Virus record (IMG/VR): IMGVR_UViG_2706794664_000016
Strand: one strand, 5' to 3'
From: a virus
Taxonomy: Duplodnaviria; Heunggongvirae; Uroviricota; Caudoviricetes
DNA length: 3,801 bases
Shown: positions 1 to 3,801 of the stretch, in pieces
Layout: the number at the start of each line of letters is the position of its first letter
Numbering within the stretch: the first letter of the stretch is position 1
The notes under the pieces: generated by a model
Databases searched by the model: none
Told to the model about the DNA's origin: nothing
Seen by the model: only the letters and a program-made list of their open reading frames with translations
Made by a program: the position numbers and the translations under genes

Positions 1-111
1 CCAATGACTAGTCTAAAAACTAGTATTAAGACTATCACTTATTTAAGTGATACTGGTTGTCTGGAGATTCAGGGGGCCAGTCTAATGCGTATTCCTTTAT
101 ACTATCTTTAG
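1..111 (+). CDS. 3' end of an upstream gene of unknown function (frame 1, open from the window edge; C-terminal peptide ...[35 protein letters not shown], stop TAG 109-111); may instead start at ATG 4-6
   Basis: Frame 1 is the only + frame open from position 1. All three minus-strand frames carry stops within 1-110, so no minus-strand gene crosses this region. Too short to assign a function. Confidence 0.35.
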
Positions 112-220
112 AGATAATACAAAGGATACGAATGATCTATTAACTCGCGTTGCTACTCTTGAAACTACCATTGCTGTACTGGAAAGTAGTATTTCCCGTA
201 TTGAGGATGATCAGGATAAG

Positions 221-319
221 ATGAGAGATACACTAAGTAAACTGGAAACACAAATCCATGAACTTGATGTTAAGATTGAAAGGATTATTGCAATTCTTCA
301 GCAGAAACAACGACCATAA
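221..319 (+). CDS. Small coiled-coil peptide, minimal ATG-initiated version (MRDTLSKLETQIHELDVKIERIIAILQQKQRP); the same frame is open from 86 and may be reached by recoding from the upstream gene
   Basis: Frame 2 is stop-free for 78 codons (86-319), unusual in AT-rich DNA, and translates to a heptad-patterned peptide ([55 protein letters not shown]). The only in-frame ATG is at 221, preceded by AGGA. Stop TAA 317-319. Confidence 0.3.
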   Translation: MRDTLSKLETQIHELDVKIERIIAILQQKQRP

Positions 320-357
320 AAAAAGGCATAGTATGTCATTCGTACTATGCCTTTTCT
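318..357. terminator. Bidirectional rho-independent terminator between the small + ORF and the convergent lysozyme gene
   Basis: A-run 318-324; stem GGCATAGTA (325-333) pairs with TACTATGCC (343-351), extendable to about 11 bp with a 5-nt loop; T-rich tract 352-357 continuing beyond. Reads as hairpin plus U-run on both strands. Confidence 0.6.
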
Positions 358-807
358 TTATTTGTTTTTAAGTACTGCAATCATGGAATTCACACGGTTT
401 GGTGTCTGCCTGTACCATAGAGAACACTTAGCCTGTTTAATTGCTTCAAGGTAATCATGTGCTTTCAGGGCTGCTAACATCTTACGGAATTTCTTCACCC
501 CGCCAATACCTAACTGGAAGGTCATGATAATAATAAAATCATTCCAGTCATCGGGAAGATTTAACCCTAATGTCTGTACCTGCATAATTGTTTTGGCTAA
601 ATCGCGAGATAGTAACTTGTCTGCTTCGCTTTCAGTAATGCCAGTACTAAAATCTTCTCCCGCCTGAATTAAGTGACCATATCCAATAGTACTACATCCT
701 AAACTATCAGCATATGGATAGAATTTCCCATTTCTGAAGTACTTCAAATTTGCCTGATACTCTTTAGTACCTTCATATTCTTTTAATCGTGTTTTTAAAT
801 CGCTCAT
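358..807 (-). CDS. T4-type lysozyme (GH24 family endolysin / N-acetylmuramidase), soluble, no signal or SAR sequence
   Basis: 149 aa. TIGYGHL matches T4 lysozyme YTIGIGHL; ITESEADKLLSRDL matches ITKDEAEKLFNQDV; FQLGIGGV matches FQMGETGV; SLWYRQTPNRVNSMI matches SRWYNQTPNRAKRVI. No N-terminal hydrophobic segment. Terminator immediately downstream. Confidence 0.9.
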   Translation of the reverse strand: MSDLKTRLKEYEGTKEYQANLKYFRNGKFYPYADSLGCSTIGYGHLIQAGEDFSTGITESEADKLLSRDLAKTIMQVQTLGLNLPDDWNDFIIIMTFQLGIGGVKKFRKMLAALKAHDYLEAIKQAKCSLWYRQTPNRVNSMIAVLKNK

Positions 808-817
808 TTACTAAATA

Positions 818-836
818 CCTATAATGAATTTATAGG
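818..836. promoter_or_regulatory. Perfect 7-bp inverted repeat CCTATAA-N5-TTATAGG in the 36-bp divergent intergenic region; candidate operator and/or back-to-back -10 elements
   Basis: The left arm contains TATAAT (820-825) on the + strand and the right arm gives TATAAA on the minus strand, each 10-20 nt upstream of the respective start codon (ATG 844 on +, ATG at 807 on -). SD AGGA 834-837 for the + gene. Confidence 0.35.
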
Positions 837-843
837 AATATTT

Positions 844-1278
844 ATGATGAGTGAATGGAAATACTCGGATGATTGGAGCGAGGAGGAAATGTTATCCGGT
901 GAATATGCTGGTTTCGTTTATATCTTTCAGTTTGAGGATGGTTCTAATTATGTCGGTGCTAAGCAAATCTATCAGCGGGTTAAGGATGCGAGAAAGCTAA
1001 AGCCCACTTCAAAGGAAAATGGCTGGCGTGAGTACCTCAGTAGTTCCAATGTCGTTAAAAACAAAATTGAAAATGGTGAACAGTACTCAAAAACGATTCT
1101 ATGGTGCTTCGCAACTATGCGAGAGGTAATGATTGTAGAGGCAATACTGATCCTTCATCAGATGCTTAAACCGGAATGTTTGAATCTGGCAATGATGAGT
1201 AAGATTAGATCACCAAATGCAAAGGATAAAAAAAGACTACTCGGAATAGTACAGGAACTATTGGAGTACTTGAATTGA
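844..1278 (+). CDS. Small acidic-N-terminus protein with a GIY-YIG-like motif (putative GIY-YIG fold nuclease, T4 endonuclease II-like in size); function unproven
   Basis: 144 aa. Motif GFVYIFQFEDGSNYVGAKQ fits the GIY-x(9-11)-YIG pattern, with Arg about 7 residues downstream (R45) and Glu at 94/99 as candidate catalytic residues. Good SD (AGGA, 6-nt spacer). No DNA-binding extension seen. Confidence 0.7.
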   Translation: MMSEWKYSDDWSEEEMLSGEYAGFVYIFQFEDGSNYVGAKQIYQRVKDARKLKPTSKENGWREYLSSSNVVKNKIENGEQYSKTILWCFATMREVMIVEAILILHQMLKPECLNLAMMSKIRSPNAKDKKRLLGIVQELLEYLN

Positions 1279-1287
1279 GGTAAATAT

Positions 1288-1788
1288 ATGGCAAGTGGAA
1301 TAAATGGGATTGGTAGTATAAGGAACTATATACAAACGCAGGGAGTTAGATTAAATAATCAATTCCAGAATGAAATAATTAAACGTTCCAAGCTACTATC
1401 CCAAAGAATGCAGGGTGATTTGAATAATAGCGTTGACCGTGGGGCAGTGGGCTTTACTCAACGTTCCATCCTTTTCTTCTATAGAAAGGTTGGGAGAAAT
1501 TCAGTTACATCGACCATCATGGTTAAAGATATTCAGGCTAAGTACCTTTATCAAGTACTGGTACAGCCAAAGGCAATTGATAAGTTTATACCTACTTCAT
1601 CTACAAGATTAACTAAGCAGGGCAACATTTCAGGACTGAAAAAGAATCTTTTAAGTGAACGATATAAGGTAGTGAAGGGTAAGAATGGTAAAGAACGATT
1701 AATTGATACCGCAAAGAAAGATACCAAGAAGAAAACCAAACGTGTAATTGGCTTACGTGAGAAGAAACAACGTCGCCTTATCTATTGA
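1288..1788 (+). CDS. Hypothetical basic protein with Lys/Arg-rich C-terminal tail (possible nucleic-acid-binding protein)
   Basis: 166 aa. GAGG SD 7 nt upstream of ATG; start lies 10 nt after the preceding stop. C-terminus KKDTKKKTKRVIGLREKKQRRLIY is strongly basic. No TM segment and no recognised motif. Confidence 0.7.
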   Translation: MASGINGIGSIRNYIQTQGVRLNNQFQNEIIKRSKLLSQRMQGDLNNSVDRGAVGFTQRSILFFYRKVGRNSVTSTIMVKDIQAKYLYQVLVQPKAIDKFIPTSSTRLTKQGNISGLKKNLLSERYKVVKGKNGKERLIDTAKKDTKKKTKRVIGLREKKQRRLIY

Positions 1789-1863
1789 CTTCTATAAGGA
1801 AGCCAATGATGGTGTAAGGGTAATTATGAGCGGTATTCAGGGAACATTCAGGATAAGTAGACA

Positions 1864-2175
1864 ATGAATTTTGAGCAACATTATGGTGATTTAATAAGCA
1901 AGATTAAGCTAAATGGCATGACACCAGATGGTAATAGTATGCCAATTAACAAATGTTTTCTTGATAAGAAATTTCAAAAGGTCGTTAAGAAAAGTAATTA
2001 TCAGATTGATAGCTATATGAACGTTATTTATGAGAAGAAGAAAGATTTCAAAGTTGGTGAAGTACTTGAATGGGAATTACAGGGTGAAAAGATGCCTGTA
2101 TTTCTAATTGAGAGTAAAAAGCTCTTTGTGAAGGGTAAACATTTTTGGGTATATGCCGTGGGGATTATTGAATGA
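1864..2175 (+). CDS. Hypothetical 103-aa soluble protein, translationally coupled to the downstream holin-like gene
   Basis: Stop overlaps the next start in an ATGA arrangement (ATG 2172-2174 / TGA 2173-2175). No TM or lipobox. Preceded by the only sizeable intergenic gap in the operon. Confidence 0.65.
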   Translation: MNFEQHYGDLISKIKLNGMTPDGNSMPINKCFLDKKFQKVVKKSNYQIDSYMNVIYEKKKDFKVGEVLEWELQGEKMPVFLIESKKLFVKGKHFWVYAVGIIE

Positions 2176-2465
2176 TTAGTATATTGATTGAGTTTCTGAA
2201 GTCAGGATTGGATTTTTTCATTAAGAAGAAAACTATTGAACAGGAAGTAAAGAAAACGAATGTAGAAGGGCAGATTGAAACGAATAAAGAAGAGATTGAA
2301 AAGGTAACATTCCACTGGCGTAATGCCCTCGGTTTTGTACTAACCCTTATCATTCTCTATAACTGGATCATAGTACCAGTACTTGATGCTTTTGGAATTA
2401 TTGTGATCCAAGTTCCATTAGGACAACTTTTGCAAGTGCTATTGATTATGGTTGGTGGAAGCTGA
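2172..2465 (+). CDS. Putative holin resembling the holin-of-3TMs / GTA-type holin family
   Basis: 97 aa. Charged coiled N-terminal region (EQEVKKTNVEGQIETNKEEIEK) followed by W-R-x3-G-x(8)-Y-N-W-x3-P-x-L-x2-F-G (FHWRNALGFVLTLIILYNWIIVPVLDAFG), which matches my recollection of the conserved core of that family, then a second hydrophobic segment. SD GGGGA 7 nt upstream. Confidence 0.55.
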   Translation: MISILIEFLKSGLDFFIKKKTIEQEVKKTNVEGQIETNKEEIEKVTFHWRNALGFVLTLIILYNWIIVPVLDAFGIIVIQVPLGQLLQVLLIMVGGS

Positions 2466-2525
2466 AAGATTTTTCCTTTAATATGTGTTTTGAGTTAATA
2501 AAATAGCAATCTAAGGATTTGATTT

Positions 2526-3320
2526 ATGAGTGATGCAATTACTACAGCAGCAATAAAAAAATTGTATGGACTATCCGCTGGGCAATGTAATATTTGCCGA
2601 ACTTCTCTTTTTAAAGAGCAGGTTCACATCGGACAAATGGCTCATGTAATAGCCAAAAGCCCAAAAGGACCAAGGGGCGATGACCTGTTAGCAAATGACA
2701 ATTCTTATGAAAATCTTATCCTGCTTTGTGCAAATGATCATATTCTTGTTGATAGAGATCCATTCACTTATACAGTAGAAAAATTGCATCAAATCAAAAG
2801 TGAACATGAGGCTTATATACAGGGTGCAACCGATAATACATTATTTTCAGATAAAAAAAGACAGTCAGATGTGGACTTTTTAAACGCTTACTTCCACTTT
2901 ACACCGTTTGCGAGGGTACGTTCATTAGTTGAAACTTTACCTAATTCTTTTCACATCAATCTTCTTATTTTTGGAGATCAGTTTGATAGTATTTTAAGGG
3001 ATTTTCCAGCGAGCTATCCTTTAAATGATAAATTACTCCACGGTCATTTCCAAAGTTTTATTGATTCGTATAAAAATATTGATTTTATCATATCTGGACA
3101 TTTGCCGATTTCCGATAATAGAAACATTCAGGTGTTTGGTGGTGCGAATCATAATCTTCTTTGTCATTTCAATTATGATGAGCTACCATCCGATAAAGCA
3201 CTGATAATAGAACAAGATTTGATTTCACATAAAATATCTCTTCTTAATGCTTATGAAGGTCTTATAAATTACCTTAGAGCTTATTACCCTGAGGTGGAAA
3301 TTTACTCTCCTATTCTATGA
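2526..3320 (+). CDS. HNH (His-Me finger) nuclease-domain protein with an uncharacterised C-terminal domain of about 185 aa
   Basis: 264 aa. C21-N-I-C24 ... A-H40-V-I ... N63-LILLC68-A-N-D-H72-ILVDRDPF has the spacing of an HNH zinc-finger nuclease motif (CxxC, catalytic His, structural Asn, C...H); the H-x-L-x-D-R tail resembles HNH_2-type domains. Residues 80-264 carry no motif I recognise. SD AAGGA; strong terminator downstream. Confidence 0.75.
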   Translation: MSDAITTAAIKKLYGLSAGQCNICRTSLFKEQVHIGQMAHVIAKSPKGPRGDDLLANDNSYENLILLCANDHILVDRDPFTYTVEKLHQIKSEHEAYIQGATDNTLFSDKKRQSDVDFLNAYFHFTPFARVRSLVETLPNSFHINLLIFGDQFDSILRDFPASYPLNDKLLHGHFQSFIDSYKNIDFIISGHLPISDNRNIQVFGGANHNLLCHFNYDELPSDKALIIEQDLISHKISLLNAYEGLINYLRAYYPEVEIYSPIL

Positions 3321-3336
3321 GTGTTATGAAATATAT

Positions 3337-3361
3337 AAAAGCCCCTTATGGGGCTTTTTTT
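3337..3361. terminator. Bidirectional rho-independent terminator between convergent genes
   Basis: Perfect stem AAAAGCCCC (3337-3345) / GGGGCTTTT (3350-3358), loop TTAT, followed by a T-run to 3361 on the + strand; an A-run precedes it, giving a U-tract on the minus strand. The minus-strand gene's stop codon (3346-3348) sits in the loop. Confidence 0.7.
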
Positions 3362-3801
3362 ATGGTTGTTGTAATAGTAATGGTTTCTTCGTTTTCTCTA
3401 AAAACCGAATGGCTTTGTTTTATTATTTCCCTAACATCTGGTTTCTTTATTTTTTTGTAATTTAATAAAGCCGAAACTAAAACAGAAACAAAAAGTATAA
3501 GTGATACTATACAAATAGTTAAACCTTCTAAAGGTGATAGTTGGGGGTCTATATATAATCCATACATAGAAACAGCGGAGATAGCAATACCGAAAACCAT
3601 CCACATATCTATAGGGCTTTTATTTGTCGATTTGACCGTAGTGTACTTTTTGACTAAGTCCGTACCTGATAGCACTGTTAAAATTAATGATAATATAGCG
3701 AGGGCAGTATTTACATTAAAATTTAGCTTAGCGAATAAAAGCAACATTAGTAAAATAAAAATAAGTAACGCTATGATTAAAAATATTCCTTTCTTGTCCA
3801 T
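3346..3801 (-). CDS. Predicted integral membrane protein with about 4 TM helices and a charged C-terminal tail; function unknown (candidate immunity, exclusion or holin-like protein)
   Basis: 151 aa from an ATG lying exactly at the window edge, so the true start may be further upstream. Four hydrophobic stretches (about residues 6-24, 33-46, 66-84, 94-113), then NYKKIKKPDVREIIKQSHSVFRENEETITITTTIKKAP. Confidence 0.65.
   Translation of the reverse strand: MDKKGIFLIIALLIFILLMLLLFAKLNFNVNTALAILSLILTVLSGTDLVKKYTTVKSTNKSPIDMWMVFGIAISAVSMYGLYIDPQLSPLEGLTICIVSLILFVSVLVSALLNYKKIKKPDVREIIKQSHSVFRENEETITITTTIKKAP

Follow-up and report, generated by a model that had tools for sequence, protein, structure and literature searches.

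The DNA considered here is a 3,801-nucleotide (nt) stretch, referred to as the window, from the IMG/VR record IMGVR_UViG_2706794664_000016, a virus of the Caudoviricetes. Central to it are two adjoining plus-strand genes at 1864-2465, one for a soluble protein of 103 amino acids (aa) and one for a 97-aa membrane protein that is a candidate holin, and a lysozyme gene on the opposite strand (Table 1). The TGA stop of the 103-aa gene (2173-2175) and the ATG start of the 97-aa gene (2172-2174) share the letters ATGA at 2172-2175, as had been noticed in the first-pass annotation, made by a model from the sequence alone. The lysozyme and holin-like genes are divergent, their starts lie 1364 nt apart, and the plus-strand open reading frames (ORFs) 844-1278, 1288-1788 and 1864-2175 stand between them, so that the ORF listing agrees with the coordinates, strands and distance of about 1.4 kb given earlier. 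The ORF 1288-1788 is ended by a frameshift, and overlooked at that time was the remnant at 86-319 of a transmembrane (TM)/coiled-coil gene cut by the insertion sequence IS2. The 103-aa and 97-aa genes are real genes and not chance ORFs, since both are kept in about 40 loci with ratios of nonsynonymous to synonymous substitution (dN/dS) of 0.06-0.12. No promoter is claimed, because a sigma-70 scan of the window found 19 candidates against 15.8 expected, which is chance level, and an Rfam scan of the window returned no RNA family.

Table 1. Features of the 3,801-nt window (positions counted from its first letter; a dot marks features without strand)
Feature	Position	Strand	Evidence
End of IS2 (left end, reading out of the window)	1-85	-	95-100% identical to insertion sequence ends in Shiga toxin (Stx) phages and to the annotated IS2 of Shigella phage SfX
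3' remnant (77 codons) of a 90-aa TM and coiled-coil gene; pseudogene in the window	86-319	+	Aligns to L002 7915-8149
Bidirectional, intrinsic-terminator-like hairpin between the convergent TM/coiled-coil and lysozyme genes	321-355	.	15-bp stem followed by a T run; 16-nt inverted-repeat arms
GH24 (T4-lysozyme-type) endolysin, 149 aa, without signal or signal-anchor-release (SAR) segment	358-807	-	PF00959 1e-11; PHROG lysozyme families
Divergent intergenic region, 36 bp; inverted repeat with both Shine-Dalgarno regions	808-843	.	Repeat kept across loci; RNAfold
GIY-YIG nuclease domain on its own, 144 aa; probable passenger of homing-endonuclease type	844-1278	+	PF19835 SegE_GIY-YIG 2e-16; phrog_7363 homing endonuclease; PADLOC HEase 4e-5
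Frameshifted copy of a conserved 192-aa gene; ORF of 166 aa stops at 1788	1288-1867	+	Extra T at 1785/1786
103-aa soluble protein of a small uncharacterised family; predicted beta-barrel; evolutionary partner of the 192-aa gene	1864-2175	+	
97-aa holin-family protein, peripheral PF11351 member; terminal gene of the operon in most relatives	2172-2465	+	
264-aa protein with N-terminal HNH domain (CBASS-effector / PDC-M68A type), probably a defence moron	2526-3320	+	PADLOC PDLC01997 4e-23, PDC-M68A 2e-21
Bidirectional terminator-like hairpin	3337-3358	.	Near-identical sequence directly 3' of the holin in L011
151-aa multi-TM cargo protein; start codon at the window end	3346-3801	-	ORF list, hydropathy

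The comparisons draw on 12 loci with a relative of the holin from one-genome-per-species collections, 28 IMG/VR viral contigs and one complete E. coli genome. The common order is tail-tip genes, TM/coiled-coil gene (+), lysozyme (-), GIY-YIG (+), 192-aa (+), 103-aa (+), holin (+) and variable cargo. The whole module is found in eight of the 12 collection loci (Buttiauxella, Pseudocitrobacter, Pluralibacter, two species of Phytobacter, Kluyvera and two Enterobacter assignments), and all whole-module loci, among about 40 loci from many enterobacterial genera, share this one order. Evidently the split between endolysin and holin is conserved rather than peculiar to the window. Three ORFs do lie between the two genes, as first described, but they are conserved members of the module rather than unrelated accessory genes, the GIY-YIG gene alone being dispensable (absent from L034, a fragment in L036). 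In intact relatives two successive ATGA overlaps link the 192-aa gene to the 103-aa gene and the latter to the 97-aa gene, and in some relatives the GIY-YIG and 192-aa genes overlap too.

At the level of family, the 97-aa protein appears to be a holin, an assignment that profile matches support marginally. The match to PF11351 (GTA_holin_3TM), against which the first-pass annotation had proposed to check it, scores 25.0 bits, just over the gathering cut-off of 24.8 (E 2.9e-5), and aligns profile positions 40-116 of 123 to residues 23-95, which hold a charged linker and both TM segments. The 'holin' profile phrog_3427 agrees (1.9e-4), the relatives in L001 and L014 score 24.9 and 24.2 bits with PF11351, and some sources already call relatives of the protein '3TM-type holin'. 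Pfam describes PF11351 as a holin for the release of gene transfer agents. Homologues of the 97-aa protein form at least 199 clusters in Enterobacteriaceae; all 28 viral contigs carry the gene, in one case with a nonsense codon, its dN/dS is 0.06-0.08, and a terminator directly follows its stop in many relatives (for example L010, L011 and L042). On the Kyte-Doolittle scale the hydropathy block of TM grade covers residues ~50-96, in two segments parted at VPVLDAFG. It is preceded by a charged stretch (residues 17-50, with eight K/R and seven D/E) and, at residues 1-17, by an amphipathic helix with a mean hydropathy of 1.27, which carries E7, K10 and D14 and stays below TM grade.

This layout can be compared with that of the Vibrio phage ICP1, where TeaA, a PF11351 member, has demonstrated holin activity (PMC7182436). 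ICP1 ORF137 (182 aa) looks, by eye, like a member of the same family. Its N-terminal helix is hydrophobic or amphipathic and a charged linker leads to two TM helices at the C-terminus, as in the 97-aa protein, which is shorter and has a shorter linker. The charged region ahead of the first TM segment had been called unusually long; it is indeed present, but it appears family-typical, because PF11351 aligns across the linker and ICP1 ORF137 has the same layout by eye, and it is shorter than its counterpart in ICP1 ORF137. As with other PF11351 holins, the 97-aa gene accompanies a soluble muramidase; it differs from them in not adjoining its endolysin, in a first helix below TM-grade hydrophobicity and in a score that only reaches the threshold. 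The holin alleles are of two types, about 45% identical, with the N-terminal helix, a WR motif and a GG(S) end common to both; the type other than that of the window occurs in L023, L028-L030, L033-L036, L044 and L048.

Several points weigh against the holin assignment. It relies on a profile score at threshold, and five of seven holins of the second type have no PF11351 match at E <=0.01, the other two scoring 20.6 and 17.7 bits. Kyte-Doolittle hydropathy gives two TM-grade segments only, against the '3TM' of the family name. Further, a hidden Markov model (HMM) of the holin family built here misses ICP1 ORF137 (E 0.05 among seven ICP1 sequences around the holin locus). Finally, tblastn of the holin and of the 103-aa protein against 50,697 phage records gave no match, and hence no close relative of this holin has been tested experimentally.

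The 103-aa protein is soluble, with no TM segment, and has no match in Pfam, PHROGs, NCBIfam, PADLOC or PDB sequences, including to any lysis-regulator or antiholin family. Its family is small: it forms 33 clusters at 90% identity, and a profile search of 1.84 billion representative proteins with the family gave 30 clusters (at 50% identity), small stand-alone proteins throughout save one match of 2045 aa, with no link to a named family. The AlphaFold2 model (pLDDT 86) predicts a small beta-barrel. Mantel tests on pairwise identity matrices over 21 loci bear on which neighbour the protein evolves with: the correlation with the 192-aa protein is strong (r 0.89, p 0.0005), that with the holin is absent (r -0.09, p 0.73), and the holin follows no other gene of the module (r -0.15 to 0.10, not significant in four pairs tested). 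In the locus pairs L021/L023, L027/L028 and L044/L045 the 103-aa proteins are 95-96% identical and the holins 45-46%, and against L008 the synonymous divergence (pS) of the 103-aa gene is saturated at 0.78 and that of the holin 0.24. The junction of the two genes is therefore a recombination boundary, at which holin alleles are swapped as a cassette between otherwise near-identical modules.

A more distant comparison comes from Escherichia phage DCP80 (PQ671644.1; loci L049/L050), the only one of the 50,697 phage records with a match to the 192-aa protein. Here a 192-aa homologue (30% identity, E 1e-13) is followed by a 103-aa homologue (BLAST 1e-4, HMM 1.9e-4) and no holin adjoins them, the order being tail-tip gene, endonuclease VII in the position of the GIY-YIG gene, the two homologues, a secreted protein on the opposite strand and a GH24 endolysin. 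With the DCP80 192-aa homologue as query, tblastn against the same phage records returned only itself. Overall, this is a common enterobacterial prophage lineage with almost no cultured representative. As a separate observation, DCP80 is filed as a T4-like member of the Straboviridae with 141 kb, of which bases 1-26000 are a siphovirus-type structural module related to the present prophage lineage and alike in architecture, followed by motA and other T4-like genes, and the record may be a chimeric assembly.

In the predicted structure of the 192-aa protein a long helix at the N-terminus is followed by a beta domain and, at the C-terminus, another helix, the fold expected of a tail completion protein, and the model resembles that of phage 80alpha, of the HK97 gp10 / lambda gpZ class. 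The protein in question, 80alpha gp51, is equivalent to lambda gpZ, HK97 gp10 and SPP1 gp16.1 (PMC11661146). Given the fold, the co-divergence and the synteny, it is considered most likely, with moderate confidence, that the 192-aa and 103-aa proteins act together in virion completion. In the complete element L020, described below, the canonical head-tail region holds a W-like gene, a weakly FII-like gene and a 144-aa gene without family match, and no recognisable Z-type gene, the FII-like and 144-aa genes being the only small ones from the capsid gene to the tail genes; comparison by hhalign of both families with the 144-aa protein was not significant. PF04883 was found in two of 43 members of the 192-aa family at a sub-threshold E of 0.15, and neither the 103-aa profile nor the 192-aa protein found anything significant among PDB sequences.

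A number of observations speak against this assignment. Comparison by hhalign of the 192-aa family with lambda gpZ, which is also 192 aa long, gave a non-significant E of 0.062 over 25 columns, and hhalign of the 192-aa and 103-aa families against lambda gpZ, gpU and FII was likewise not significant. The two genes stand outside the usual head-tail connector block, after the tail-tip gene and beside the lysozyme, and in both lineages they adjoin an endolysin, which would fit a lysis role too. Moreover, the top fold matches of the 103-aa model are PilZ domains at 3-14% identity and not virion proteins, and Foldseek of the model against predicted viral structures returned nothing below E 0.008, with TM-scores <0.5. 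To the established tail completion proteins lambda gpZ, HK97 gp10, SPP1 gp16.1 and 80alpha gp51, whose fold it would share, the 192-aa protein has no significant sequence match; genes of the gpZ class lie between the head-tail joining and terminator genes, and the 192-aa gene lies beside lysis genes, invariably with the 103-aa gene behind it, for which lambda has no counterpart. In the late region of phage P2, the lysis genes Y, K, lysA, lysB and lysC lie directly beside the tail completion genes R and S. P2 is thus alike in interleaving lysis genes with those of tail completion type in one late transcription unit. It is unlike in its gene families, in having the spanins LysB/LysC and in that its holin and endolysin genes are adjacent, whereas the endolysin of the present module is inverted and the search for a spanin found none.

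On balance, we lean towards the combination of these readings, in which the 97-aa protein is a holin, the 103-aa protein belongs with a tail-completion-like 192-aa partner, the ATGA overlap results from operon compaction and the holin is an independent cassette. The reality of the genes, their synteny, the family scores, the hydropathy, the statistics of co-divergence and the pseudogenisation in the window are shown directly, and from these we infer hole formation, membrane topology, a virion role for the pair and late co-transcription. The 97-aa protein would use its two C-terminal TM helices to build up in the inner membrane, with the K-rich linker and the N-terminal amphipathic helix on or in the cytoplasmic face, and at a set time would open holes through which the signal-less GH24 lysozyme (358-807) reaches the wall. 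The 192-aa and 103-aa genes evolve as a unit, and their products would serve virion completion. The ATGA at the holin would be one more product of compaction in a late operon whose genes follow one another with 4-nt overlaps, and the holin is a terminal cassette, exchanged independently as two alleles about 45% identical.

The ATGA overlap had been taken in the first-pass annotation to imply fixed stoichiometry of the two products, as for an antiholin-like partner, and by analogy with T4 RIII, which acts on holin T, the 103-aa protein could be a cytoplasmic antiholin or regulator of lysis timing, translationally coupled to the holin and binding its N-terminus. A 4-nt overlap does recur at eight of the ten 103-aa/holin junctions read in sequence (ATGA, or GTGA in L009) and, by coordinates, in the 28 viral contigs, and every intact locus has a protein of the 103-aa family encoded just ahead of the holin, since the family HMM also recognises the divergent 106-aa protein at this position in L001 (E 8e-7). 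T4 RIII is soluble, as is the 103-aa protein, which would face the cytoplasmic domain of the holin; the N-terminal helix and linker of the latter are conserved and probably cytoplasmic. Given that the helix is conserved between the alleles, the absence of co-variation would be compatible with binding there, and this counts against the separation of the two proteins proposed here. However, the overlap is not specific to a holin partnership, because the same ATGA joins the 192-aa and 103-aa genes in intact relatives; the holin gene is equipped with a Shine-Dalgarno sequence of its own, and the coupling is missing from L001 and L014, where the gene starts ~10 nt past the upstream stop; and the almost invariant C-terminus of the 103-aa protein, AVGIIE, could be due to binding but equally to the ribosome-binding site and start codon of the holin that overlap it. 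The antiholins T4 RIII and RI, lambda S107 and ICP1 ArrA are also small proteins encoded right beside a holin, but the 103-aa gene differs from them in having no family match, TM segment, dual-start holin gene or co-variation, near-identical copies standing beside holins only about 45% identical, and in being kept in DCP80 with no adjacent holin. We consider the antiholin reading unlikely, and the 103-aa protein is probably not a holin regulator. The barrel fold suggests in turn a PilZ-type second-messenger receptor that would tie holin triggering to cyclic di-GMP (c-di-GMP), which is highly improbable: the protein of the window contains no arginine and hence no RxxxR, neither this motif nor D/NxSxxG is seen in alignments of the family, identity to the fold matches is as low as stated above, and there is no Pfam match to PilZ. 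With these ligand-binding motifs missing, the receptor reading was rejected. It is also doubtful, somewhat more so than an antiholin, that the 192-aa and 103-aa pair forms a lysis accessory device, that is, a spanin substitute or a cytoplasmic regulator of holin or endolysin, whose PilZ-like barrel would dock on the N-terminal helix common to both holin alleles.

A further rival concerns the 90-aa TM/coiled-coil protein, which might itself be the holin or a releasin-like factor, the 97-aa protein then being an auxiliary membrane protein with a role as antiholin, in superinfection exclusion or otherwise. The position of the 90-aa gene is as conserved as that of the holin, and in all relatives this gene and that of the lysozyme are convergent; the 97-aa score lies at threshold, with the second allele below it, and the 97-aa gene assorts independently of the module, as cargo does. 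The intact protein matches phrog_1009 (4.6e-6) and phrog_739, 'Rz-like spanin' (2.7e-5), and has a weak precomputed match to PF10805/DUF2730. DUF2730, the family of the releasin Mu gp25, maps near endolysins, including ones without SAR domains (PMC9239132). In a Pfam scan, however, DUF2730 was not among the 25 best matches listed, which are generic coiled-coil families; the Mu releasin works on a SAR endolysin, and the lysozyme here is not of that type. Moreover, two independent holin profiles match the 97-aa protein, which is kept under strong purifying selection in all the viral contigs. The 90-aa protein shares with Mu gp25 and with Rz-type i-spanins an N-terminal TM helix followed by a coiled coil and a place beside the endolysin; it differs in that its matches are weak and dominated by the coiled coil, no lipoprotein partner is found and the endolysin has no SAR domain. 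This alternative is, in our view, rather improbable, and the 97-aa protein is retained as the candidate holin.

The lysozyme shows no export signal, with a maximum 19-residue hydropathy of 0.85, and by eye its translation has E-D-T at the catalytic positions of T4 lysozyme. In the annotation of L020 a soluble GH24 lysozyme, in the same conserved module as the holin, is the only muralytic gene recognised. The first-pass annotation had found no spanin in the window, and in agreement with this there is no canonical spanin in the window or in the full 34-kb relative; neither the 103-aa nor the 166-aa product has a TM segment, and all frames of the window, of L002/L006 and of the 34-kb element are without a conserved lipobox ORF. 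The absence of spanins thus extends beyond the window, as no conserved lipoprotein ORF is present in the complete element. A lipoprotein reading of the 90-aa protein, suggested by 'ISGC' within its TM helix, was rejected, the cysteine being not conserved.

The complete element L020, of ~34 kb, lies in ybhA of E. coli ESBLEC_MG48 (NZ_CM132639.1, 3124000-3158000), with a large serine recombinase at one end. Its structural genes are lambda-like for head and tail, with a fused protease-capsid gene, and two large tail proteins (562 and 939 aa) sit between the head-tail genes and the tube gene. The cargo includes an ATP-dependent nuclease gene, and the small membrane proteins are just the 97-aa protein and an 89-aa TM/coiled-coil protein.

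The window is the tail-distal end of such a siphovirus-type prophage of ~34 kb, widespread in Enterobacteriaceae and decaying in a Shigella sonnei / E. coli lineage. The exact 97-aa sequence is present on 551 contigs whose sources name E. coli and Shigella sonnei; window positions 85-3801 are 99.97% identical to such assemblies, in which the prophage end adjoins mipA-yeaE-gapA, and at 35% the GC content is lower than the 50% of the flanking host genes. When phage, plasmid and complete E. coli collections were searched by megablast, the window matched only at its IS2 end and, with 82% identity, along one stretch over the holin in a single E. coli genome. From base 85, which the IS2 end abuts, the window is homologous to the intact prophage. 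The insertion removed the first 13 codons of the 90-aa gene, whose remnant is 63% identical to the 89-aa protein of L001. A one-base insertion of T frameshifts the 192-aa gene, the displaced 3' part of which still ends in ATGA with the start of the 103-aa gene. With the one gene cut by IS2 and the other frameshifted, the module in the window is probably no longer functional as a whole. The tail-tip gene is also broken by insertion sequences in other Shigella copies.

If the preferred reading holds, the locus is an ordinary, partly decayed lysis end of a prophage, and the holin call repeats a name, '3TM-type holin', under which some sources already list relatives. What makes the finding largely ordinary is that the second gene encodes a holin-family protein that ends a conserved late operon, the first looks like the partner of the gene upstream and the copy is decaying. 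Novelty does not go beyond one more peripheral member of a holin family already known, together with a pair of uncharacterised genes from a prophage lineage that has been poorly sampled. In the lysis module of this lineage the endolysin is inverted, a spanin is lacking and the holin is swapped as an independent cassette, and the 192-aa and 103-aa genes make up a two-gene family with confident predicted folds and no annotation, now linked to a candidate role in tail completion. It also serves as a caution against taking a 4-nt overlap of start and stop as evidence that two genes of a compact late operon are functional partners.

Between the lysozyme gene and the first plus-strand gene (808-843; L001, L008-L017, L021-L048) lies an inverted repeat of 26-42 bp, AAATACCT...AGGTATTT. 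The copy in the window reads CCTATAA N5 TTATAGG with AAATA/TATTT at its flanks, and both Shine-Dalgarno regions fall inside it. The inner bases vary between loci yet stay complementary (CTCA/TGAG, CTTT/AAAG, CTATAA/TTATAG); the repeat is kept in about 19 of 22 distinct loci, with RNAfold z scores of -2.4 to -7.4, and could be a hairpin that controls translation or an operator.

Beyond the holin, the N-terminal ~105 residues of the 264-aa protein match the HNH domain of SAVED-HNH effectors of cyclic-oligonucleotide-based antiphage signalling systems (CBASS) and of PDC-M68A (4e-23 to 2e-21), whereas the 160 residues towards the C-terminus have no assignment. The gene is absent from the position after the holin in most relatives and looks like an inserted defence moron, since it separates the holin stop from a terminator near-identical to that placed directly after the holin in L011. 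The 151-aa protein on the minus strand (3346-3801) has about four TM segments, no family match and a variable presence among relatives, in which its gene is followed by a DNA methyltransferase gene (phrog_3820, 3e-103).

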